Virus record (IMG/VR): IMGVR_UViG_3300032753_001573
Coordinates: 32,001 to 96,000 of that record
Reading direction: 5' to 3' (one strand)
DNA length: 64,000 bases
Origin: a virus
Part shown: in pieces, positions 302 to 58,733 of the stretch
Layout: every line of letters starts with the position of its first letter
Position numbering within the stretch: position 1 is the stretch's first letter
Notes under the pieces: model-generated
What the model saw: only the letters and a program-made list of their open reading frames with translations
What the model was told of the DNA's origin: nothing
Database searches by the model: none
Translations under genes and position numbers: made by a program

Positions 302-1060
302 ATGGGCGAGCTTTTTAAAACTGACATAGATATACCAACTGATGCATTTGGTATAGGATTCAAATTATCAGGTGGTGCCGATAGTAGCATAGTATACTAT
401 GCAGTATGCAAGGAATTGGCAAGAAGAGATCTAAAAATTCCTGTATACGTAACTACTCTAGACACTGATATAAAACTATGGTACAGTCACTACGCTAAGA
501 AAGTTATTAATTTCACTGCAAACGAAACAGGTGTAAGTCCGGTTAATCATATTACTAATTATATATCAGGCCCATATGACGACGACAGGTATACGGATGG
601 GCAAGACATTATGGTATATAATCTTGTTGATGATAGAAAGATAAATGTTTTGTATAGCGGACTTACACAAAATGCAAAAGTACAAGATCTATATGATGCA
701 GCTATCGGACATCCTGATATCAAATTAAGTTCGGCGCCATTGATGGAATGGTGTATCAATGGTACTGATCCGACTAGGAATGATCATTCTAAACAAGGAT
801 ATCGCGGTATTGACCGCAAGCATGCATCATTACCGTTTTGGGCAATATATCCGTTTTTGCATCATGATAAAAAATATGTAGCAGAACAGTATAAAGATTA
901 TGACGTTATGGAAAAGTTGTTTCCATTAACATATAGTTGCGAGCATGAAAATTCTGAGATAAAGACCAAATTAGATATAGTTGATGGATTCCAAGAACAC
1001 GCACACTGCGGACAGTGTTGGTTTTGTATAGAACGAGTTTACGGTTTTGGAAAGCTGTAA
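302..1060 (+). CDS. QueC-like PP-loop ATP pyrophosphatase
   Basis: PP-loop LSGGADS and a C-terminal Zn cluster TYSC...HCGQCWFCIER, as in the QueC family. Confidence 0.7.
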   Translation: MGELFKTDIDIPTDAFGIGFKLSGGADSSIVYYAVCKELARRDLKIPVYVTTLDTDIKLWYSHYAKKVINFTANETGVSPVNHITNYISGPYDDDRYTDGQDIMVYNLVDDRKINVLYSGLTQNAKVQDLYDAAIGHPDIKLSSAPLMEWCINGTDPTRNDHSKQGYRGIDRKHASLPFWAIYPFLHHDKKYVAEQYKDYDVMEKLFPLTYSCEHENSEIKTKLDIVDGFQEHAHCGQCWFCIERVYGFGKL

Positions 1061-1061
1061 C

Positions 1062-1622
1062 ATGAAGATATGTATAACAGGCAACAACAATAGTGGCTTA
1101 GCAGGCGCATTAGCTACAATATATCCATCGGCTACATTTATTAGCAGACATACTGGATATGATCTAACAACTATTGCCGATCAAAATAGATGTGCAAGTA
1201 TAGCACTTGAACACGATGTGTTTGTTAATTGCGCTGCACTTTGGAAATTTAATCAGACTATTCTGTTAGATACAGTATATAAACTTTGTCTAGACAATAA
1301 ACATCCAATACATATTATATGTATAGGTAGTACCACTGATAGAGTTAAAAATGGCAAAGCATGGTTATACAATGCTGAGAAGAAAGCATTAAGGGATTAC
1401 TGTAATACATTAGCATTGGGAGGTGTTTGGGGTTCATCGCCTAAGATAAGCTATCTAAGCTTAGGTACGTTATCTAATAATCAGGAAAAACATCCGGATC
1501 GAAAATGTATTGATATGTCTTTAGCTGCTAACTATGTAAAATGGTTGATAGATCAGCCAAGAAATATAAACATAAATGAAATTAGTATAGATCCAATGCA
1601 GGATGGTAGATGGTATGAATGA
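1062..1622 (+). CDS. short-chain dehydrogenase/reductase-like protein
   Basis: N-terminal MKICITGxxxSGLA Rossmann strand, VFVNCA, IGS and YxxxK (YNAEK). ATG 1062 is preferred as start, right after the upstream stop. Confidence 0.7.
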   Translation: MKICITGNNNSGLAGALATIYPSATFISRHTGYDLTTIADQNRCASIALEHDVFVNCAALWKFNQTILLDTVYKLCLDNKHPIHIICIGSTTDRVKNGKAWLYNAEKKALRDYCNTLALGGVWGSSPKISYLSLGTLSNNQEKHPDRKCIDMSLAANYVKWLIDQPRNININEISIDPMQDGRWYE

Positions 1623-1689
1623 TCAACTTAAATGGAGTCAATACGATTTCACTAAGATACCGTTTGATGATATTGTTAAATTTGGCTGA
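1615..1689 (+). pseudogene. 24-codon orphaned 5' stub of the radical SAM gene at 2504
   Basis: MNDQLKWSQYDFTKIPFDDIVKFG* versus MNSNLKWSEYDFTKIPFNDIVKFG at 2504: 20/24 aa and 59/72 nt identical by hand count. Confidence 0.9.
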
Positions 1690-1706
1690 TTTTGTAATAA
1701 TATTTG

Positions 1707-1714
1707 TATAAATA
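1707..1714 (+). promoter_or_regulatory. T4-like late promoter TATAAATA for the GIY-YIG gene
   Basis: Exact T4 gp55 consensus, 4 nt before ATG 1719. Confidence 0.65.
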
Positions 1715-1718
1715 AGGT

Positions 1719-2507
1719 ATGACATACTACATTGTTTACAAAACGACAAATTTAATTAATGGCAAACGATATATAGGTTATCATAAAACAGATAATTTAG
1801 ATGATGGATATTTAGGATCTGGATTGGTTTTATTAAATGCTATTAAAAAATACGGTAAAGAAAATTTTATTAGAGAAACACTAGGAATGTTTAGTGATAG
1901 TAAATCTGCATTAGATTACGAACGAATGTTAATTACAGAATATGTAATATATAGCGATGATTTTTACAATTTAATGCCAGGTGGTATTGGCGGAGATGCA
2001 AAAGGCGAATCATCTCGTAATTATGGTATAAAAAAATCTACAAGTCACAAAGAAAAATTGAGTTCTTTACGAAAAGGTAGATTTACTGGAGAAAATAATC
2101 CATTTTATGGAAAAAAACACACAGATGAATTAAAGAAATGGTTCAGTGAAAGACAGATAGGCGATAAAAGTCCTGTATATGACAATACATTGTATAAATT
2201 TATAAATCATAAAACGGGCGAATGTTTCGAAGGTACACAATATCAGTTTGTACACAAATTTAACCTTGATTCAGGTAATGTTAATAAATTGGTAAGAAAA
2301 GTTGTTACGTCTTATAATATGTGGACGTTAGATGGTAATAAACCTTTGAAAAAAGGTCCAAAGATTGATGAAACTATCTATACAATATATAAGGATGATG
2401 AGATATTTGCAGGAACACGACAAGAAATAGAACACATGTTAAAAACATGTATATCTAGATTTTTGTCAGGTAAAATCAAAACATGTAAAAAATGGAAACT
2501 TAAATGA
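1719..2507 (+). mobile_element. free-standing GIY-YIG (Seg-like) homing endonuclease with NUMOD3-like repeats
   Basis: YIVYKTTNLINGKRYIG, YLGSG, KYGKENF, GENNPFYGKKH; more AT-rich than its flanks. Confidence 0.9.
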
Positions 2508-3643
2508 ATAGTAATCTTAAATGGTCTGAATATGATTTTACTAAAATACCGTTTAATGACATTGTTAAATTTGGACAAAGAAGTTTATTATATAAGGATA
2601 TTTTTTGTGTAAGTTGGATCGTCGGAAGGTATTGCAACTACAATTGCAGTTATTGTTGGCCTTATGCTAGGAGTAATACTAAAGATTATAGACCGTTTGA
2701 ACTCAATCGTATGACTATGGATGAGATTAAGCGACAGAGCAGAGAACGAGGATATAACAGTTTCCATTTCAGCTTTAGCGGCGGAGAACCAACGGTATAT
2801 CCTGATTATCTTAAACTGCTAGCACACTATTCTAACGATACTGAAAATTGCAACTACCAAAGTGTGCATATGACTAGTAACATATCACAAGGAATTCGAT
2901 GGTTTGAAAAATATGTTGATACGACAAAAGATCTTCACAGAGTATCTGTTACTGCTAGTTGGCATCGCGAACAGGGTATCAAGCAAGGTGATTTAAAAGG
3001 ACATACAGAAAAATTTGCAGACAAGTTGGTATTTCTGCAAGAGAACGATGTGCAAGTAACTATAAACACAGTAATGGTACCTGAGTGGTTTGATACTCTT
3101 TATGCAGAAGCAGAATACTTTCTCAGCAGAGGCATTAATGTTACTCTCAAACCTCAAAGCGATCCCACAGCTAGCAGAGTAGTTGAGGGATATACTGCGC
3201 AGCAACTGGCTACATTACACAACGGCATGCCGCAACGAGATTTCACTGCAGTAAAGAGCAAAGTTGTTCGTCCAAAACCTCCGGTTAGCATGCATGCTAT
3301 GAGCATTAACAATGGTGATGATGCAGCAGTGCCGCAGATTATGCAGGTAGAGTTTGAAGACGATACTGGTAAGAAATGGTACATGGATCAGGCCGAGAGA
3401 TTCAATGCGTTTGATTTCAATAATTTCAAAGGTTGGGACTGCGAAAGCGGGTATCGCAGTATTATTATCAGAGAACCAGATGGTGCTATCAAACGTAGCT
3501 ATAGCTGTCAAGATAAACCTCTTGGTTACATTGAGACTGGATTCAAATTGTTTGATAAACCGATGACATGCATAAGCGATGCATGCGTTAGTAGTGCTGA
3601 TAGTAAGATACCAAAACAGCGATCTATTTCAAGAATTTTCTAG
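2504..3643 (+). CDS. radical SAM protein with C-terminal Cys (SPASM/twitch-like) region
   Basis: CNYNCSYC (CxxxCxxC), SGGEP, and several C-terminal Cys. Confidence 0.9.
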   Translation: MNSNLKWSEYDFTKIPFNDIVKFGQRSLLYKDIFCVSWIVGRYCNYNCSYCWPYARSNTKDYRPFELNRMTMDEIKRQSRERGYNSFHFSFSGGEPTVYPDYLKLLAHYSNDTENCNYQSVHMTSNISQGIRWFEKYVDTTKDLHRVSVTASWHREQGIKQGDLKGHTEKFADKLVFLQENDVQVTINTVMVPEWFDTLYAEAEYFLSRGINVTLKPQSDPTASRVVEGYTAQQLATLHNGMPQRDFTAVKSKVVRPKPPVSMHAMSINNGDDAAVPQIMQVEFEDDTGKKWYMDQAERFNAFDFNNFKGWDCESGYRSIIIREPDGAIKRSYSCQDKPLGYIETGFKLFDKPMTCISDACVSSADSKIPKQRSISRIF

Positions 3644-4375
3644 GAGTTGTTCAACTTCTTGCCAATTGCGAATTATTTGTTTCTTTTCATCAAGAGTTAA
3701 CATTTTTCTAGTTAGTAGCTCATTTTGCTCTAGTTCATCTACATTAAGCGCAGTGTACGATGTATCATCTAGTCCATAGGTCTTTAACACACTGGGAATC
3801 AAGTTTACACAATCAGCAACCATTGATTCGTAGTTGATAATGCCGATGCAATCGCATTCATTTATCAATCTGTATCTATATTCGTTGTAAACATTTGTGT
3901 AACCTATTTCGGTTTTCAATTCGTCTAACGATACATCAAATGGACGTAACTCTTGTTTAAGTTTGTCTACAACATCCTGTTTGGTGGTAACCCAAACATT
4001 AGTATGTCGTGCTATATACCAACTGAGATATCGTTCTAATTGGTTGCGCTTTACTTCTATCCATTTTGCACTATGGTCAGACATCCATCGATCTAAATAT
4101 GGTATTGCAGAGGGATGAAAGGAATGTTTAATCAACCTATGTCGATGAGAAAAACTATCGTACATCTGTAAACGTTGGTCAAATTTGTTGCGGTCTGTGG
4201 TAACGATACCAGTAACCTCAAACCCAACATCGTGTTGCACTAAATTTATTGCATTGTTAGATGGTTCCCACATATCGGTGAACTCTAATCCTGCTTGTCT
4301 CAGCAATCTAGTAAAGTAATAGAATGAAAAACTTGTGCCTGTTCTAGGTAATCCTACTAAATGTAGATCGGTCAT
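3629..4375 (-). CDS. sulfotransferase-like P-loop protein
   Basis: GLPRTGTS resembles the 5'-PSB loop; KRNQLERYLSW resembles the 3'-PB motif; INYE near the C-terminus. Confidence 0.6.
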   Translation of the reverse strand: MTDLHLVGLPRTGTSFSFYYFTRLLRQAGLEFTDMWEPSNNAINLVQHDVGFEVTGIVTTDRNKFDQRLQMYDSFSHRHRLIKHSFHPSAIPYLDRWMSDHSAKWIEVKRNQLERYLSWYIARHTNVWVTTKQDVVDKLKQELRPFDVSLDELKTEIGYTNVYNEYRYRLINECDCIGIINYESMVADCVNLIPSVLKTYGLDDTSYTALNVDELEQNELLTRKMLTLDEKKQIIRNWQEVEQLLENS

Positions 4376-27531: not shown

Positions 27532-27553
27532 TACTACACTCATATACTCAATG

Positions 27554-27583
27554 AGGAAAGGGACACTGTGTCCCTTTCCTTTT
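27554..27583 (+). terminator. rho-independent terminator after groEL
   Basis: aggaaagggaca-ctg-tgtccctttcct-ttt. Confidence 0.85.
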
Positions 27584-27634
27584 AATTTTACACAACCGCT
27601 TGGCAAAGTAGCATTTATTGCGCATAATGCATAT

Positions 27635-30199
27635 ATGAAAACCTGCACAGTAATACTTGAAGACGAATGCAACATTAAACTTGAAGGTCTCGACCTAAAC
27701 ACTAGGCGCGATTGCGTAAAGACGGTTAAGTACTTCTTGCCCCACGCAAGATATAGTGCAGCTTACAAACTTGGTAGATGGGACGGGACAACTAGCTTTT
27801 GTACAATTGGCGGTAGAACCTACCTCAATCTTCTTGACAAGATGCTACCTGTATTGGCAGAAAATGGATATACGGTAGAGCTAGATGACAAGCGACACAC
27901 GTATGATTTTAAATTTGATAAGATAGATGAGAATTACCTAAGCAACATAACTTGGCCTACAGGACACAGAGCAGAAGGTCAACCCATAATACTTCGAGAC
28001 TATCAAGTTCAGGCTATCAACGAGTGCATTGATAATTTGCAGGGACTCAGTATTGCTCCTACTAGTGCGGGCAAATGTCAACCTCTAAGCAGCAAGGTTA
28101 AAGTACCGGGCGGCTGGATAGAAATGGGAGATATATCGGTAGGTGATGTGATAACTATACCAGACGGTAGTACAGCTAGCGTGATTGGAGTGTATGATCC
28201 CGGTATCAAAGATGTATACGAGATAACCTTTGAAGACGGACGTAAGGTCAGATCATGCAGCGATCATATATGGAAGGTTCATAATCATAACCGGACTAAC
28301 AAGTGGAAGCTTTTAAGCTTATCAGAGATAATAGCATATCAAAAAACTAATAATAGACACATATCTGTGCCATTAGCATCGCTAGTTAACGATACTTGTG
28401 TTGCAGATCTACCGATGCATCCGTACCTACTTGGTGTACTACTTGGCGATGGATCATTCGGGCATTGTTTTGGTATCACATCGGCAGATGAATTCATACT
28501 TAATAAAGTATCTTCTCTTCTTGATTCTGATTATAAACTGTCACATATATCAAGATATGATTATAGTATAAAATTTGTATCTGAAGATGTTCACATGAAA
28601 AAGCGATCAGAATGGATGAAACATTACCCGCGTCGTGCAAATGGTACTACACTGCCAAATACAACTTATCAAACCTATCATATGTATAAATCGATAATTA
28701 AAGATCTTGGATTGTCAGGAACTCGCAGCCATACAAAGTTCATACCTCAGATATATCTCAATGCAGGATATGAACAAAGGTTGCAGATGATACAAGGCTT
28801 GTTGGACACAGACGGGTATGTTGATCGTCGAGGTTGTATAAGTTTTACGACTACAAGCCAAAAGTTAGCTGACGATTTTGCATATCTTATCAGAAGCGTT
28901 GGAGGTATTGCTAAACATACTAGAGGCACGAATAGGAAATATCGATATAATAGTGAAATAGTGCCTTGCAAAGATTGTTTCAATGTATCTGTATATCATC
29001 CTACTCCTGCAATATTAGTTACCTTGCCGCGTAAGCTAGAAAGAATAAATTCTCGTAATGTTAAACGACAGCCAGTGTTACATATTGTTGACATACAGAA
29101 AGTATCAACGGAACCGGTGCGTTGCATAATGATTGACCATCCCGACCATCTGTATTTGACAGACAATTTTGTAGTAACACATAACACACTTATTACTGCC
29201 AGCCTTAGCAAGATAGCAGAGAAGTATGGCCGTACTATTGTCATAGTCCCAAATAAAAACCTAGTACAACAGACAGAAGAAGATTATCGAAACATAGGAT
29301 TAGAAGTTGGAGTGCTGTTTGGCGACCGTAAAGAGTATGATAAAAAACATACTATTTGTACATGGCAGAGTCTAAACGTACTAGACAAGAAGAACAAAGA
29401 TGCGCTTGACGATGATCAATTATCAGTGTTCCTTGACGGGCTCATTGCAGTTATTTGCGATGAAGTCCATATGGTAAAGAATGCTAATGTGTTACATACC
29501 TTATTAACTACGACATTTTCTAGCATTCCAATACGTTGGGGATTAACTGGTACCATACCAGAAGAAGAATACAATCAAGTTAGTTTATATAGTGCTATAG
29601 GACCTCTTATTGGTTCTCTCACTGCCAAAGAATTACAAGAAGCTGGGCACCTAGCACAGTGCAATATTAACATACTACAAACTCAAGAAACCGCCGTATA
29701 TAACGATTATCAATCAGAGCTAAAATATCTAGTGACAAACAAAGATCGATTACAGTGGCTAGCCAATAAGGTTACTGAAATATCCAAGACAGGTAATACA
29801 CTGGTTCTGATAGATCGTATCGAAACTGGTGAGATACTAAATGAGATGTTACCCGATGCTACATTTATCAGTGGTAAGATGAAGGCTACTAAACGCAAAG
29901 AACATTACAAGGAAATTAATCTAGAGAACAATTCAGTAATGATTGCTACATATGGTACAACTAGTACCGGTATTAGTATCAATCGAATCTTCAATCTAGT
30001 GTTAGTTGAACCTGGTAAGAGCTTCGTGCGTGTTATACAGAGCATTGGTCGTGGCTTACGCAAAGCGGATGATAAGGATGCAGTTGAAGTTTACGACATA
30101 GCTAGCAAGTGTAAGTTTAGCAATAGACATCTGCTCAAGCGTAAGAAGTTTTATAAAGAAGTATCATATCCGTTTGATCAAGAAAAGATTATGTACTAA
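27635..30199 (+). CDS. uvsW: UvsW-like SF2 helicase containing an intein
   Basis: WDG, LRDYQ, APTSAGK|..|T, DEVH, GLTGT, QSIGRGLR; ATG 27635 follows TTGGCA-N17-CATAAT. Confidence 0.92.
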   Translation: MKTCTVILEDECNIKLEGLDLNTRRDCVKTVKYFLPHARYSAAYKLGRWDGTTSFCTIGGRTYLNLLDKMLPVLAENGYTVELDDKRHTYDFKFDKIDENYLSNITWPTGHRAEGQPIILRDYQVQAINECIDNLQGLSIAPTSAGKCQPLSSKVKVPGGWIEMGDISVGDVITIPDGSTASVIGVYDPGIKDVYEITFEDGRKVRSCSDHIWKVHNHNRTNKWKLLSLSEIIAYQKTNNRHISVPLASLVNDTCVADLPMHPYLLGVLLGDGSFGHCFGITSADEFILNKVSSLLDSDYKLSHISRYDYSIKFVSEDVHMKKRSEWMKHYPRRANGTTLPNTTYQTYHMYKSIIKDLGLSGTRSHTKFIPQIYLNAGYEQRLQMIQGLLDTDGYVDRRGCISFTTTSQKLADDFAYLIRSVGGIAKHTRGTNRKYRYNSEIVPCKDCFNVSVYHPTPAILVTLPRKLERINSRNVKRQPVLHIVDIQKVSTEPVRCIMIDHPDHLYLTDNFVVTHNTLITASLSKIAEKYGRTIVIVPNKNLVQQTEEDYRNIGLEVGVLFGDRKEYDKKHTICTWQSLNVLDKKNKDALDDDQLSVFLDGLIAVICDEVHMVKNANVLHTLLTTTFSSIPIRWGLTGTIPEEEYNQVSLYSAIGPLIGSLTAKELQEAGHLAQCNINILQTQETAVYNDYQSELKYLVTNKDRLQWLANKVTEISKTGNTLVLIDRIETGEILNEMLPDATFISGKMKATKRKEHYKEINLENNSVMIATYGTTSTGISINRIFNLVLVEPGKSFVRVIQSIGRGLRKADDKDAVEVYDIASKCKFSNRHLLKRKKFYKEVSYPFDQEKIMY
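28076..29185 (+). mobile_element. contiguous intein (370 aa) with LAGLIDADG endonuclease
   Basis: CQPL...SDHIW...YLLGVLLGDG...QGLLDTDG...VVTHN|T, inserted in Walker A (GK|T). Confidence 0.95.
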
Positions 30200-30830: not shown

Positions 30831-31928
30831 TTACTGGCTACTTATATGAGCCCAGCCATATCCTGGTAGTGTTGTACCAGTGAATGCCCATTCATACTGA
30901 TTTCCGCTCCATGTGTAAACGATTCTATCAGTTATCTTTTGAGCATATGCAGATTGTAGTGCTTCTGCAATTTTAACAGTTGGTACAGATGTATATGATC
31001 CGCCCGAATCTACCACAACACTTCTAACACTATTGCCTGACAATACAGTGTGTGCTGTAGCGCCTGCAGGTGTAAATGTTACCGCTGGAGCTACTTCATA
31101 ACCGCTACCGCCAGCTGTTAGGGTAACATTGCTTACATTCCAATTTAGGTTAGCCTGTGCACCTGTTCCTAGTGCGCTGCCAGTGAAAGATACTGGATTA
31201 GTAGGTAGGGCAGTATAATCGCCGCTGTTAACTACAGTGTTCATGCTGTATACACCAAAGCGCACATCGAACGTTGCTCCTACACCGCTGTTAGTGTTTG
31301 AAGAAGTTGGTGCAAATGGACCAGCTGGCAATGAGTTATTGGTAAACACACCGCTGTTAAGTATGCTGATGCTGGTAATAGCACCGCTTACATTGACGCT
31401 GTTGACTTTTATGGACACATTGGTAGCATATCCTGCACCAGCAAAGTTCAACACGTTGTCTTGTGCATAACCAGAACCCAAGTTGTGTGCAGCGGCATCT
31501 GACCAAGTAACAGCGGTAACGCTAACATTTGCCTGCTTCTTACTGACATATGTGCCGCCTACTACGTGTAGAGTTTCGCCTGGAACATAATTGGCACCAA
31601 GAGCACCTGTTCCGTTAGCAGTAACACCGGCTGATGTTACACTGAGGTTTGCAGTAGCAGTAGCACCTGTTCCTTGTGCACCATATGGAGTAACAGTGAT
31701 GTTACCCTGTCCTGGACCTGTTACTGGTCCATTTACTAGCTGTACTAATCCGCCGCCGGGAACACCAGTACCGTTTACACTAGCCATCTTGTAAAGGTGT
31801 GTGCCTTTCTGAGACACTATATAGCTCTGACGTGCCTGACTATCGCCTGCAGTCCATGCATATCCAACAAGCTGCTGCCCAGCTACGGCAGAATTGCCTA
31901 TGAATAATTTATTAATTGGTCGTCCCAT
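30831..31928 (-). CDS. virion protein (MGRP family) with internal G/S/T/V-rich GxGY repeats
   Basis: Late promoter, SD aaggag, repeat-rich centre. Confidence 0.65.
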   Translation of the reverse strand: MGRPINKLFIGNSAVAGQQLVGYAWTAGDSQARQSYIVSQKGTHLYKMASVNGTGVPGGGLVQLVNGPVTGPGQGNITVTPYGAQGTGATATANLSVTSAGVTANGTGALGANYVPGETLHVVGGTYVSKKQANVSVTAVTWSDAAAHNLGSGYAQDNVLNFAGAGYATNVSIKVNSVNVSGAITSISILNSGVFTNNSLPAGPFAPTSSNTNSGVGATFDVRFGVYSMNTVVNSGDYTALPTNPVSFTGSALGTGAQANLNWNVSNVTLTAGGSGYEVAPAVTFTPAGATAHTVLSGNSVRSVVVDSGGSYTSVPTVKIAEALQSAYAQKITDRIVYTWSGNQYEWAFTGTTLPGYGWAHISSQ

Positions 31929-31945
31929 TTGTTTTTCTCCTTATG

Positions 31946-32006
31946 GTTGCCGTTCTAGGGCTACGAGGTTGGGATCCCCATAACTAATGAACTGCTCTAT
32001 TTATGG
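31946..32006 (-). ncRNA. candidate structured cis-regulatory leader, copy 1
   Basis: 48-nt core 47/48 identical to 32414-32461, lying between late promoter and SD. Confidence 0.6.
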
Positions 32007-32009
32007 TGT

Positions 32010-32399
32010 TCAGTTCTGAACGTACCAGTTATAATCTACATATACGCCGTTAGTTTGATCTCCGTAGTATTGCATGTGCCAGGGGAATTCGCCACCTTTG
32101 AAATCTCTCAGAGTATGATCATTGATTCTGGCTGCATATCCGCTGCTACTGTTTGGATACGTAAAATGTATGTAACCGTCTCCGGGATTGGTATAAACTC
32201 CGTTAGTTAATGTTATAACACCAGATACTTTTGGACTAGTTTCTGACCAGGTTCTAACTAGATATTTGTTACTACCAACCTGTTTGATAATATCATACCA
32301 TCCAACAGTTCCATTAATATTGCCATATATTAGCAGTACGTTGGTATTTGGTGGAGGCGGTGTTGTGCCTATTGCATTTTTGGTAATTGGCCTTCCCAT
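32010..32399 (-). CDS. virion protein (MGRP family), short paralog
   Basis: MGRPITK; shares N- and C-terminal blocks with 30831..31928. Confidence 0.65.
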   Translation of the reverse strand: MGRPITKNAIGTTPPPPNTNVLLIYGNINGTVGWYDIIKQVGSNKYLVRTWSETSPKVSGVITLTNGVYTNPGDGYIHFTYPNSSSGYAARINDHTLRDFKGGEFPWHMQYYGDQTNGVYVDYNWYVQN

Positions 32400-32413
32400 T
32401 TGTTTACTCCTTT

Positions 32414-32474
32414 GTTGCCGTTCTAGGGCTACGAGGTTGGGTTCCCCATAACTAATGAACTACAGTATTTATGG
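32414..32474 (-). ncRNA. candidate structured cis-regulatory leader, copy 2
   Basis: Near-identical to copy 1, with the same spacing to CCATAAATA. Confidence 0.6.
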
Positions 32475-53283: not shown

Positions 53284-53409
53284 CTAAAGGTCTTAAAATA
53301 ATTTATAAACATGTACGAGAATATCATGATGAGGTGATGTAAATATGTGCTCAATGACGCAATACGTCATTCATGTTTTTCATCTCACGATTCTATAAGG
53401 AAGGTTCAA

Positions 53410-55059
53410 ATGTCACTGAGCAATAAGTCTGATATCATGGTTATCAAGAGAGAAGGCAGAAAAGAAACGTTAGATGTTGAAAAGTTACACAAAGTGGTAT
53501 TTTGGGCAACCGAAGGTATCAGCGGAGTTAGTGCAAGTGAAGTAGAAATTCGCAGCCAAATACAATTCTATCCTGGTATTACGACTACTGATATACAGGA
53601 AACTTTGATCAAAGCGGCTGCTGAGCTAATATCAGAAGAAACACCAAACTATCAATATGTAGCAGGGCGTTTAATTAACTATCATCTACGCAAACAAGTG
53701 TATGATCGATATGAGCCAAAAGGATTCTTAGACCATATCAAGAAAGTTATCAATGAAGGCTATTATGATCCAGAGATATTATCTTGGTATACAGAAGATG
53801 AAATCAAACACTTAGATTCTCATATCAATCACACTAGAGATTATGATATCACTTATGTAGGTATGGAACAGCTACGTGGCAAATATCTAGTAAAGAATCG
53901 CGTAACTGGACGCATCTACGAAACTCCGCAGATGGCATACATGCTGATAGCAATGGTGTTGTTCCGTCGTTATGGCGCAGATAGGCTAAAGTGGGTCAAA
54001 GATTTTTATGATGCTATCAGCACATTTGAGATCAGCTTACCAACTCCAATTATGGCAGGATTGAGAACACCTCAGAAGCAGTTTAGTTCCTGTGTGTTGA
54101 TTGAGACTGATGACAGCCTCGATAGTATCAGTGCTACTTCTAGCGCTATTGTCAAGTATGTGAGTCAGAAAGCTGGTATTGGAATTGGTGGCGGTCGTAT
54201 AAGAGCTATCAACAGTCCAATACGCAACGGAGATGCTAGCCATACTGGTGTAATTCCGTTCTACAAGCATTTCCAAAGTGCGGTAAAGAGTTGTTCTCAG
54301 GGAGGCGTTCGCGGCGGCGCGGCTACTCTGTACTATCCAATTTGGCACTTGGAAGTTGAAGACCTATTGGTCCTCAAGAATAACAAGGGCATTGAAGATA
54401 ACCGTATACGACACATGGATTACGGTGTTCAATTCAACAAGGTGATGTATGAGAGGTTATTGACTGGCGGTAACATAACCCTGTTTAGTCCTCACGACGT
54501 ACCAGATCTCTATGAAGCATTTTTTGTTGATGTTGATAAATTTAGAGATCTCTATGAAAAGTATGAACGCAGCAGTAAGGTAAGAAAAAAGTCTGTACCG
54601 GCTATAGAACTGTTTGGCAGTTTTATGCAGGAACGCAAGGACACCGGTCGTATCTATCTTATGAATGTAGATCATGCTAATGATCACGGGTCATTTATTA
54701 AAGAACTTGCTCCTATTAGACAGAGCAATTTGTGTCTAACAGGTGATTCTATGATTAACATCATGGGAACAGATGGTGCAATACAACATATCACACTTCA
54801 AAGCTTTGTAGAACAATACGAGCTTGGAGGAATGCATGGCGTTAAGGTTAAAAGTTACAACATAGATACTGATACAGTGACTTGGAATTTAGTAAGTAAT
54901 GCTGCAAAAACTGCAACGGTTACGACATTAATTGAAATTGAAGATGCGAGTGGTAAAATTATACGTTGTACTCCAGACCATCAGATTTTTACTAAAAATA
55001 GAGGATATGTTATGGCTAAAGACCTAAAAGAAACTGACGTGCTATGCACTGAAATATGA
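53410..55059 (+). CDS. nrdA: class Ia ribonucleotide reductase alpha, N-terminal part with a 108-aa N-intein (54733-55056)
   Basis: ATP-cone VIKREG, TPIMAG, QFSSC, QGGVRGG, QSNL|CLTGD...CTPDH. Confidence 0.95.
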   Translation: MSLSNKSDIMVIKREGRKETLDVEKLHKVVFWATEGISGVSASEVEIRSQIQFYPGITTTDIQETLIKAAAELISEETPNYQYVAGRLINYHLRKQVYDRYEPKGFLDHIKKVINEGYYDPEILSWYTEDEIKHLDSHINHTRDYDITYVGMEQLRGKYLVKNRVTGRIYETPQMAYMLIAMVLFRRYGADRLKWVKDFYDAISTFEISLPTPIMAGLRTPQKQFSSCVLIETDDSLDSISATSSAIVKYVSQKAGIGIGGGRIRAINSPIRNGDASHTGVIPFYKHFQSAVKSCSQGGVRGGAATLYYPIWHLEVEDLLVLKNNKGIEDNRIRHMDYGVQFNKVMYERLLTGGNITLFSPHDVPDLYEAFFVDVDKFRDLYEKYERSSKVRKKSVPAIELFGSFMQERKDTGRIYLMNVDHANDHGSFIKELAPIRQSNLCLTGDSMINIMGTDGAIQHITLQSFVEQYELGGMHGVKVKSYNIDTDTVTWNLVSNAAKTATVTTLIEIEDASGKIIRCTPDHQIFTKNRGYVMAKDLKETDVLCTEI

Positions 55060-57125: not shown

Positions 57126-58733
57126 ATGTTTAGTTATGTAGAATGGTTTAAAGAAACTCTCTTTAATGCTCGAGGAAAATTAAATCCTCGAGCAAGCTCG
57201 CCAGTCTGGTGGTCAAATTTTACAGATCAATATGTTGATTTTAAAGAATCAACTATTTGGCTAGATGCAGAAAGTAGCTTTGCAGAAAGATCTTATTGTT
57301 ATATCAATCTTTTAACAGAAAGACCAACTTGTAAGGTTTGTTCAAATTTTGTAAAGTACAGCAAAGTTAAGAGGGGGTATAGCGAATATTGTAGCTCCGG
57401 GTGTGTGACCAAAGACAAGTCTATATTGGAAAAAAGATGTAGAACTATGGTGGACAGATACGGATATGTGAAAAATTTTTCATCTGAAAAACACAGATCT
57501 GTCGCACAAGTTGCAATTGAAGAAAAATGGGGTGTTGATCATCCTATGAAGTCTCAAATATTGATAGACAAGTTAAAAAACAAACATATCAACAAATATG
57601 GAAGTCATTATACTCAAACTGAAGAATATCAGCAGAAACGTAAAAAAACTTGTATTGAAAAATACGGGGAAGACAGCCATATGAAGTTGCCCGCCTTTCG
57701 TGATACAATTGGAAATTTGAATCGTAAATTAACCGATAAAATAAAAGATGAAATAAAGCATGATTACACGTCTGGCATGGCAAAACAGACATTATCTGAA
57801 AAATATGACATCAGTTTGAGTCATATGAACAAGATTTTAACTCTTATGGGGTTAGAAACAGATCTTCCTCAGAACAAAATAAATTATAACAAATGTTGGA
57901 AATCTTCTGCTGAGTTAGAACTAGTACATTGGTTAACAGAATTTTATCGCGGTCAAATACTGACTAGTCAAAGGTCACTGATATGGCCCTACGAGGTTGA
58001 CATTTATTTGCCAGAGATCAAACTAGCAATTGAATTCAACGGTACATATTGGCATTCTGATATATTCAAAGATCGCAATTATCACAAAAACAAAATTGAA
58101 AAACTAGAATCAATTGGCATAGATTGCGTTATGATATTTGAAAATATTTGGAATGACAGGAAGGACCTAATAAAAAGTAAACTGCTATCAAAGATATTGA
58201 AGTTACCTTCTATAGGTGCTAGAAAGTGTATCATTAAACCAATAGATTATAAGATATTGTCTGAATTTACAGAAATCTATCATTTGCAAGGGTCCAGAAC
58301 TAGTAGAATAAATTACGGTGCATATAACCAAGGCGAACTTGTTGCTTGTGCATCATTTAATAAATTCAGAGATGGGTTAGAGTTGGTTAGATTTTGCTCC
58401 AAACAAAGAGTTGTGGGTCTATTACCAAAAATTTTAAAATATCTTAAGATTTCATTTAATGGTCCTGTTTATTCATTTGCTAACAGGTGTTACACTTACA
58501 GATATAAGAATTTATACTCGATGAATGGATTTTCTGAGATTGACGTAACTGACCCCAATTATTATTATGTAAAAGGCAAAACAGTTCTAACTAGAAATGC
58601 TTGTATGAAACACAAGTTATGTAATTTTTTAGAAAATTTTGATCCAAATATATCTGAATACGAAAATATGAAAAAAGATGGTTGGCATAGATATTGGGAT
58701 TGTGGTAATATACTTTACAAGATAGATATATAA
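57126..58733 (+). mobile_element. free-standing putative homing endonuclease (Vsr/EDxHD-like) with YGxx repeats
   Basis: CKVC...YCS, repeated (Y/W)G motifs, DIYLPEIKLAIEFNGTYWHSD, ARKC...HLQG...WDCG. Confidence 0.75.

Follow-up and report, generated by a model that had tools for sequence, protein, structure and literature searches.

The 64,000-nucleotide stretch of DNA analysed here (the window: bases 32001-96000 of the 155,688-bp viral record IMGVR_UViG_3300032753_001573, CheckV completeness 36%) carries a complete radical SAM gene that is preceded by a second, truncated copy of its own start, with an endonuclease gene lying between the two. The locus very probably represents a free-standing, Seg/I-TevI-like GIY-YIG homing endonuclease cassette that sits in an uncultured phage's radical SAM gene, between codons 24 and 25. 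On this reading, the original first 24 codons have been left as a dead stub, which still shares the native ATGAATGA overlap with the upstream gene, and the working gene restarts at an ATG that overlaps the endonuclease stop codon; therefore, no intron or intein is needed. We observed this architecture, empty alleles in related phages, a foreign type of divergence between the two starts, and recurrence of the same layout at other loci. The cassette itself comprises, with good confidence, three parts (a spacer, the endonuclease gene and 72 nt that serve as the replacement start of the gene) and extends roughly from position 1687 of the window to 2575-2600.

Two starts of one radical SAM gene

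All features of the locus lie on the plus strand. The upstream gene, a 186-aa Rossmann/SDR-like gene taken from the list of open reading frames (ORFs) (1062..1622), ends with a TGA (1620-1622) inside the first codons of the stub, thereby forming the ATGAATGA junction that is also present in empty alleles. The 5' stub of the radical SAM gene (1615..1689) encodes MNDQLKWSQYDFTKIPFDDIVKFG in 24 codons (1615-1686), followed by an in-frame TGA (1687-1689). The left end of the cassette is a 32-nt AT-rich spacer (1687..1718; GC content 16%), which contains TATAAATA at 1707-1714 and AAGG directly before the ATG that opens the GIY-YIG homing endonuclease gene (1719..2507; 262 aa, Seg/I-TevI-like with a NUMOD3 motif, assigned by PHROG 314, TIGR01453 and NUMOD3). 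The start codon of the replacement 5' end overlaps the endonuclease stop (ATGA), and its 24 codons (2504..2575) encode MNSNLKWSEYDFTKIPFNDIVKFG and continue as a 379-aa radical SAM ORF to 3643. This complete gene (2504..3643) is full length in comparison with its homologues and bears CxxxCxxC at residues 44-51. Its product matches Pfam Radical_SAM (E = 7e-13) and is 80-89% identical in amino acid sequence to the products of the related loci L002-L012, from residue 1-8 on.

The first-pass annotation had pointed to a duplication of 24 codons (1615-1686 and 2504-2575), with a stop codon and an endonuclease between the copies, and its coordinates and counts proved exact: the copies are identical at 59/72 nucleotides and 20/24 amino acids. 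Ten codons differ, six of them synonymously and four nonsynonymously, confirming that the copies are rich in synonymous changes; the divergence, which amounts to 18% with a longest identical run of 14 nt, is as expected between two functional orthologues. When the 155,688-bp record as a whole was compared with itself by BLAST, the pair scored E = 5e-13, indicating that the similarity is not due to chance. The locus thus has the feature of end-replacement elements that an endonuclease gene has a full-length host gene on one side and, on the other, a displaced copy of the end of the same gene.

Judging from its domains and motifs, the endonuclease gene is intact and of the Seg/I-TevI type. Its product matches PHROG 314 ('homing endonuclease', E = 2e-43, residues 1-254) and NUMOD3 (25.6 bits, above the cut-off of 20.4), the match to TIGR01453 ('group I intron endonuclease') falls just below the cut-off (55.9 bits versus 56.05), and that to Pfam PF01541 (GIY-YIG) is also below it (19.3 versus 22.6). 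In alignment A1, which contains the endonuclease and three homologues, YIVY...YIG, YLGSG, E68 and N84 are invariant and the C-terminal halves differ, which fits different targets. In addition, the protein gave a weak match to the DNA-binding domain of I-TevI (1i3j), and no relatives of its C-terminal 110 aa were found in IMG/VR or the JGI metagenomes. The best cultured relatives are T4-type SegB/SegD-like genes, at ~32% identity. The gene is single-copy in the record, no second copy of the endonuclease was detected in the genome, and the sequence of the stub-cassette junction is absent elsewhere in IMG/VR. Nuclease motifs, a linked DNA-binding module, an ORF of its own and presence/absence polymorphism place the enzyme among the free-standing GIY-YIG homing endonucleases; neither a ribozyme fold nor an in-frame Hint domain, the marks of intron- and intein-encoded endonucleases, is present.

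The promoter that had been read from TATAAATA (1707-1714) is doubtful: the box lies only 4 nt ahead of the endonuclease ATG and is not enriched, with three occurrences in the window against 7.5 expected and nine in the genome, and 'promoter' is for these reasons an unverified label. The idea of TATAAATA as a genome-wide late promoter was rejected on the same lack of enrichment, and a sigma-70 scan yielded nothing above background. Expression may proceed by read-through from the upstream operon, or from a leaderless transcript; those seg and mob genes of T4 that lack a promoter are expressed by read-through (PMC2988022). A left end of the type TGAT..TATAAATAA is also found at L091 and L235, two loci described below. 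Separately, we observed that TATAAATA ends 4-5 nt before the endonuclease ATG both in the window (1707-1721) and in L235 (~570-586), a spacing at which a T4-type late start would land on or beside the ATG, raising the possibility of leaderless mRNAs at these two loci.

Empty alleles, sister cases and the origin of the replacement start

The radical SAM family comprises at least 598 loci in IMG/VR, and tblastn gave no match to it in 50,697 cultured phage records. The 80 best radical SAM loci among these at least 598 were compared with the window, and none of the 80 carries the endonuclease. Homologues of the upstream gene lie directly 5' of the radical SAM gene in L003, L005-L012, L038, L040 and L079, among others, and the two genes overlap through ATGAATGA in L003, L005-L008, L010 and L038; the stub retains the same overlap. 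Its homology to the empty alleles ends exactly after codon 24 (1686/1687), where the relatives go on with a conserved Gly-Gln-Arg...Leu-Leu-Tyr. In BLASTN against L009, a first high-scoring segment pair aligns window 1002-1685 with L009 5393-6071, unbroken from the upstream gene into the stub, and a second aligns window 2520-3616 with L009 6017-7113. The two pairs overlap by 55 nt in L009, which is the prediction for an empty allele and an insertion with duplication. The expectation that relatives lacking the endonuclease would run from the upstream gene straight into a full radical SAM gene was thus borne out by the alignment to the related loci.

Two further observations concern the family at large. 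A tract of ~200 nt within the radical SAM gene (window 3344-3553) reaches 90-100% identity with L003, compared with ~76% in the remainder of the gene, and looks like a recent, separate recombination patch that is not contiguous with the endonuclease. Paralogues of the radical SAM, QueC-like and SDR-like genes recur in varied orders in the related contigs.

The copies themselves speak to their history. Omega between them is ~0.24. When neutral drift was simulated with 13 substitutions on the stub, four or fewer amino acid changes without a stop codon arose in 0.02% of trials (P = 2e-4) and only family-allowed residues in 0.01% (P = 1e-4); with only 7 substitutions, the fraction was 0.8% (P = 0.008). 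Every residue of the stub is family-typical. Over 51 alignable nucleotides, the copies are 88% and 84% identical to L009 and 82% identical to each other. Since the divergence bears the mark of purifying selection and neutral decay is rejected, the copies are orthologous ends from two lineages and not a drifting in-situ duplicate. One of the two starts is thereby shown to have come from another phage lineage.

Several pointers, each of them weak, point to the stub as the native copy and to the functional start as the imported one. The stub keeps the native junction, and in a weak comparison it is nearer than the functional start to eight of nine close relatives. The functional start is tied to the endonuclease both physically and in translation, and shares its low GC: the values are 24% for the functional start (0.17 at third codon positions, GC3), 28% for the endonuclease, 31% for the stub and 39% for the whole radical SAM gene. 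The AT-rich composition of the endonuclease extends through the new start, and GC3 is at the level of the gene by ~2590.

We screened 140 loci with endonuclease homologues for repeats flanking the endonuclease, and found three further independent cases of the same layout: L206, L091 (on the same contig as L170) and L235. In L206 (case at 2903-3842), a 584-aa gene comes first, then a stub of 15 codons and a GIY-YIG gene of 267 aa. Next is a 202-aa gene (function unknown) that begins at an ATG overlapping the endonuclease stop through the same ATGA. Both flanking genes are 94-96% identical to those of five relatives without the endonuclease (L243-L247). The L206 stub matches the 5' ends of L243-L247 at 42-43 of 44 nt (43/44 for L243 and L244), and the functional start differs from the endonuclease-free relatives at 8/44 positions. 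This functional start resembles the one that accompanies an endonuclease of 70% identity in L258, a more distant, endonuclease-bearing allele with a much shorter stub (8 nt), and the sequence of L206 reverts to native downstream of about nt 60. Aligned in this way, the alleles show directly that in L206 the unit consists of the endonuclease and a short gene start of foreign origin, whereas the stub is native. The proposal that the cassette brings its own start segment is accordingly upheld in the comparison of L206 with L243-L247, where the stub is native and the endonuclease-linked start imported.

The other two cases involve the opposite end of a gene. In L091 (3717-5008), a minus-strand gene for a DnaB-like helicase is affected: its working 3' end is on one side of the endonuclease and, on the other, there is a displaced copy of this end, which still abuts the next gene; the relatives of this helicase are at most 44% identical, too distant to tell the native from the foreign copy. 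In L235 (503-1355), another minus-strand gene is arranged in this way. The polarity is the same in all four cases, running from stub through endonuclease and replacement end to gene body, with the stub 5' of the endonuclease gene and the rest 3' of it, and three of these four loci have a TATAAATA box no more than 20 nt from the stub. The screen also yielded flanking repeats that were rejected as gene-end duplications: those of L104, L105, L190 and L203 are transfer RNA (tRNA) genes, a SegB-like setting, and that of L197 is an 84-nt hairpin-bearing repeat (2077-2158 and 3258-3339).

Proposed mechanism and alternative explanations

The endonuclease would cut endonuclease-free alleles near codons 24-26, by the end of the stub, and repair of the break from a donor would copy the endonuclease plus the linked start. 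The upstream gene and the stub would provide the left homology arm and the gene body the right one, as proposed for the WHO elements of yeast (PMC7282813). The founding invasion would need one illegitimate join at 1686/1687. Once the cassette is in place, the 18% divergence between the copies, with a longest identical run of 14 nt, would hinder deletion by recombination between the repeats, and the same divergence may protect the new start from cutting. Because the stub indicates where cleavage is likely to occur, every locus of this kind predicts an endonuclease target together with a naturally resistant allele, and these predicted pairs could be useful for enzyme discovery.

A more specific form of immunity did not hold up. 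The empty alleles have CAACG or CAGCG immediately after the junction, the window has CAAAG, and the native cleavage motif of I-TevI is CAACG (PMC5009752). Immunity through loss of an I-TevI-type CNNNG motif was rejected, as the CAAAG of the window is also found in 10 of 62 endonuclease-free relatives. Moreover, the conserved Gln-Arg codons force the motif, so that CNNNG at the junction is evidence of neither a cleavage site nor immunity.

A broader reading, which we put forward tentatively and do not hold to be probable, is that Seg-like endonucleases of T4-like phages practise a general and undescribed form of ORF invasion, namely end replacement of fixed polarity at either the 5' or the 3' end, with a split target site and leaderless late transcripts from TATAAATA. 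Under this broader scheme, the stub would keep the binding part of the target without the cleavage site, and the new end would keep the cleavage position with a respelled binding part. The TATAAATA box 4-5 nt before the ATG, as in the window and L235, might then keep the enzyme scarce by way of leaderless late transcripts.

Several points weigh against the cassette explanation of the locus. We found no near-identical endonuclease-free relative of the window phage; the best relative of the upstream gene reaches 75% amino acid identity among 5.8 billion proteins. Because no closer relative is at hand, the assignment of the native copy in the window is drawn from the junction, the composition, the weak eight-of-nine comparison and analogy. 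The endonuclease has no close relative in IMG/VR or the JGI metagenomes, with at most 49% identity over the nuclease domain, and hence no donor is identified. Maximum-likelihood trees place the window weakly with L009 for both the upstream and the radical SAM genes, and for the remainder of the radical SAM gene the gene trees offer no strong sign of a foreign source. In addition, the record is a metagenome assembly. The same trees disposed of a whole-gene import of the radical SAM gene, which identity tables had hinted at through discordance with the upstream gene, and this idea was dropped.

Taken together, the rival explanations are rather unlikely, and the main one among them makes the upstream block the newcomer. 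It holds that the endonuclease already lay immediately upstream of the radical SAM gene, and that a block made up of the upstream gene and the first 24 radical SAM codons of another phage was joined to it illegitimately at a recombination boundary, leaving the stub as the newly arrived part. The same final architecture would be expected, nuclease genes have been reported at boundaries of phage exchange (PMC10448857), and the radical SAM family is mosaic, as in the 3344-3553 tract (90-100% to L003 versus ~76%). However, L009 is among the nearest relatives of both flanks, and the new start shares the low GC of the endonuclease. In L206, furthermore, the foreign part is confined to the endonuclease and 44-60 nt, both flanking genes being 94-96% identical to those of relatives without the endonuclease. 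We therefore regard a recombination boundary as improbable. Direct repeats on both sides of the inserted gene could also stem from a duplication in situ during insertion, akin to the duplication of a target site, with the unused copy drifting afterwards. Drift of this kind is very hard to reconcile with six synonymous codons among the ten that differ, an omega of ~0.24, a stub that retains all family-typical residues, the rejection of neutral decay (P ~1e-4 to 8e-3), and copies that are each as close to L009 (88%, 84%) as they are to each other (82%), and we give it little credence.

The remaining two alternatives concern the reality of the interruption. As the record is a metagenome-assembled viral contig, two strains might have been joined chimerically during assembly, which is very improbable on three grounds: the longest identical run, at 14 nt, is not long enough to lead an assembler astray, a chimera of two strains would not put a complete endonuclease gene between the copies, and the same architecture occurs in independent assemblies (L206, L258, L091/L170 and L235). 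Removal of 1687-2575 at the RNA or protein level, by an intron or an intein, is hardly credible. Group I introns or inteins carry many of the endonuclease genes found inside ORFs, but here Rfam searches of 1400-2900 detected no group I intron even at E up to 10, the endonuclease ORF has its own ATG after a stop codon in a frame different from that of the host gene, and the downstream ORF, which starts at an ATG of its own, already has its full length. The earlier statement that intron and intein features are missing agrees with these results, namely the negative Rfam search and the stops and frame change that separate the endonuclease from the host ORF.

Relation to known elements and other features of the genome

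The locus is best read as a phage, 5'-end version of the end replacement already known from yeast and fungal mitochondria. In Torulaspora and Lachancea, the WHO elements at FBA1 (Coughlan et al. 2020, PMC7282813) consist of an endonuclease gene and a copy of the end of the host gene. Their homing replaces the end of the host gene, and the old end is pushed aside as a fragment that serves as the second homology arm; both cleavage and resistance have been demonstrated, the latter arising from allelic sequence differences and not from splicing (PMC7282813). The likeness lies in a mobile endonuclease with a gene-end copy, a displaced end left as a fragment, and the absence of splicing. The WHO enzymes, however, are intein-derived LAGLIDADG-zinc-finger proteins that act in the eukaryotic nucleus and replace ~400 bp of the 3' end, whereas the phage locus, known here from sequence alone, involves a GIY-YIG enzyme, a 72-nt stretch at the 5' end with the start codon included, and translational coupling to the endonuclease.

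A second parallel is provided by the mobile ORFs (mORFs) of fungal mitochondria, which form 'gene hybrids' in Allomyces atp6 and in Glomus atp6, atp9, cox2 and nad3 (PMC3630166). There, too, an endonuclease ORF (GIY-YIG in atp9) separates an expressed gene end, which is foreign, from the native one that has been displaced, and the two ends are very similar in protein and diverged in DNA, mostly synonymously. Those elements differ in residing in organelle genomes, in replacing the C-terminus and in an ORF that is often in phase with the host gene; in the phage genome the N-terminal end is replaced and the ORFs are separate. Divergence of the copies while both were functional, as in WHO and mORF elements, is found in the window (omega ~0.24, neutral decay rejected). 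Replacement of the 3' end (C-terminus), the other hallmark of these elements, is not seen in the window and is seen in L091 and L235. We therefore liken the locus to the WHO and mORF elements without filing it as a member, since it is the 5' end and the start codon that are replaced. L091 and L235, for their part, appear as phage counterparts of the fungal mitochondrial C-terminal replacements.

Among phages, the closest comparison is the MobA element of T4-like phages, in which mobA is associated with a gene 60 N-terminal extension and a bypass (Bonocora et al. 2011, after the summary in bioRxiv 10.1101/2022.08.31.505936). According to that summary, it is likewise a phage homing endonuclease inside an ORF without intron or intein, the element-encoded region is homologous to the displaced host segment, and the insertion disrupts the enzyme's own target. 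As the summary describes it, MobA differs in being an HNH enzyme, in splitting the topoisomerase into two polypeptides with added tails, in the deletion of 55-75 nt of native sequence with no stub left, and in a 50-nt translational bypass. The window holds one uninterrupted 379-aa ORF with no bypass and no coding gap, and none of the traits of the MobA/gene 60 cassette (HNH, split gene, added tails, bypass) is found in it.

The free-standing endonucleases of T4 lie between genes or, in three cases, in gene-splitting insertions (nrdA of Aeh1, genes 39/60 and gene 43), and the review of these enzymes describes no gene-end replacement with a leftover stub (PMC2988022). The Seg and Mob enzymes of T4 resemble the present one in enzyme family, in presence/absence polymorphism and in overlap with neighbouring ORFs, as well as in a poor ribosome-binding site and late-type or absent promoters (PMC2988022). 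Our literature search retrieved no report of this end-replacement design in phages or at a 5' end. The first-pass annotation had presented the locus as a splicing-free way to home into coding sequence. That no splicing is needed stands; the way is not new in kind, given the yeast, mitochondrial and MobA precedents (PMC7282813, PMC3630166, bioRxiv 10.1101/2022.08.31.505936).

The locus suggests that phage homing endonucleases can enter coding sequence without intron, intein or gene splitting, by means of a spare, respelled end of the target gene. This would widen the set of colonisable sites, here to a radical SAM gene that is accessory and belongs to an enzyme island of the tail region, and could account for gene starts annotated as 'duplicated' and for short orphan ORFs in phages. 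It also calls for caution, as gene termini beside endonucleases may be foreign and can mislead phylogenies. Phage Seg enzymes, yeast WHO elements and fungal mitochondrial mobile ORFs would then be convergent solutions.

Elsewhere in the genome, PHROG matches to GroEL, a DnaB-like helicase, baseplate and tail proteins and ribonucleotide reductase indicate a large tailed phage. The upstream 186-aa protein, which had been labelled 'SDR', has no match in Pfam or NCBIfam; the label draws its support from the JGI names of its relatives (YdfG/short-subunit dehydrogenase) and not from the protein itself. A 94-nt repeat with 88% identity between its copies (window 31913-32006 and 32384-32474) represents the leader and start (MGRPI...) of two adjacent minus-strand paralogues and is unrelated to endonucleases. 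An 882-aa helicase (window 27551-30199) has mid-protein PHROG matches to terminase families; a shared insert resembling an intein may lie behind them. The large subunit of ribonucleotide reductase (53347-55059) shows an odd C-terminal match to a helicase family, and a 535-aa HNH homing endonuclease (phrog_3339; 57126-58733) is present. The genome seems to be rich in selfish elements.

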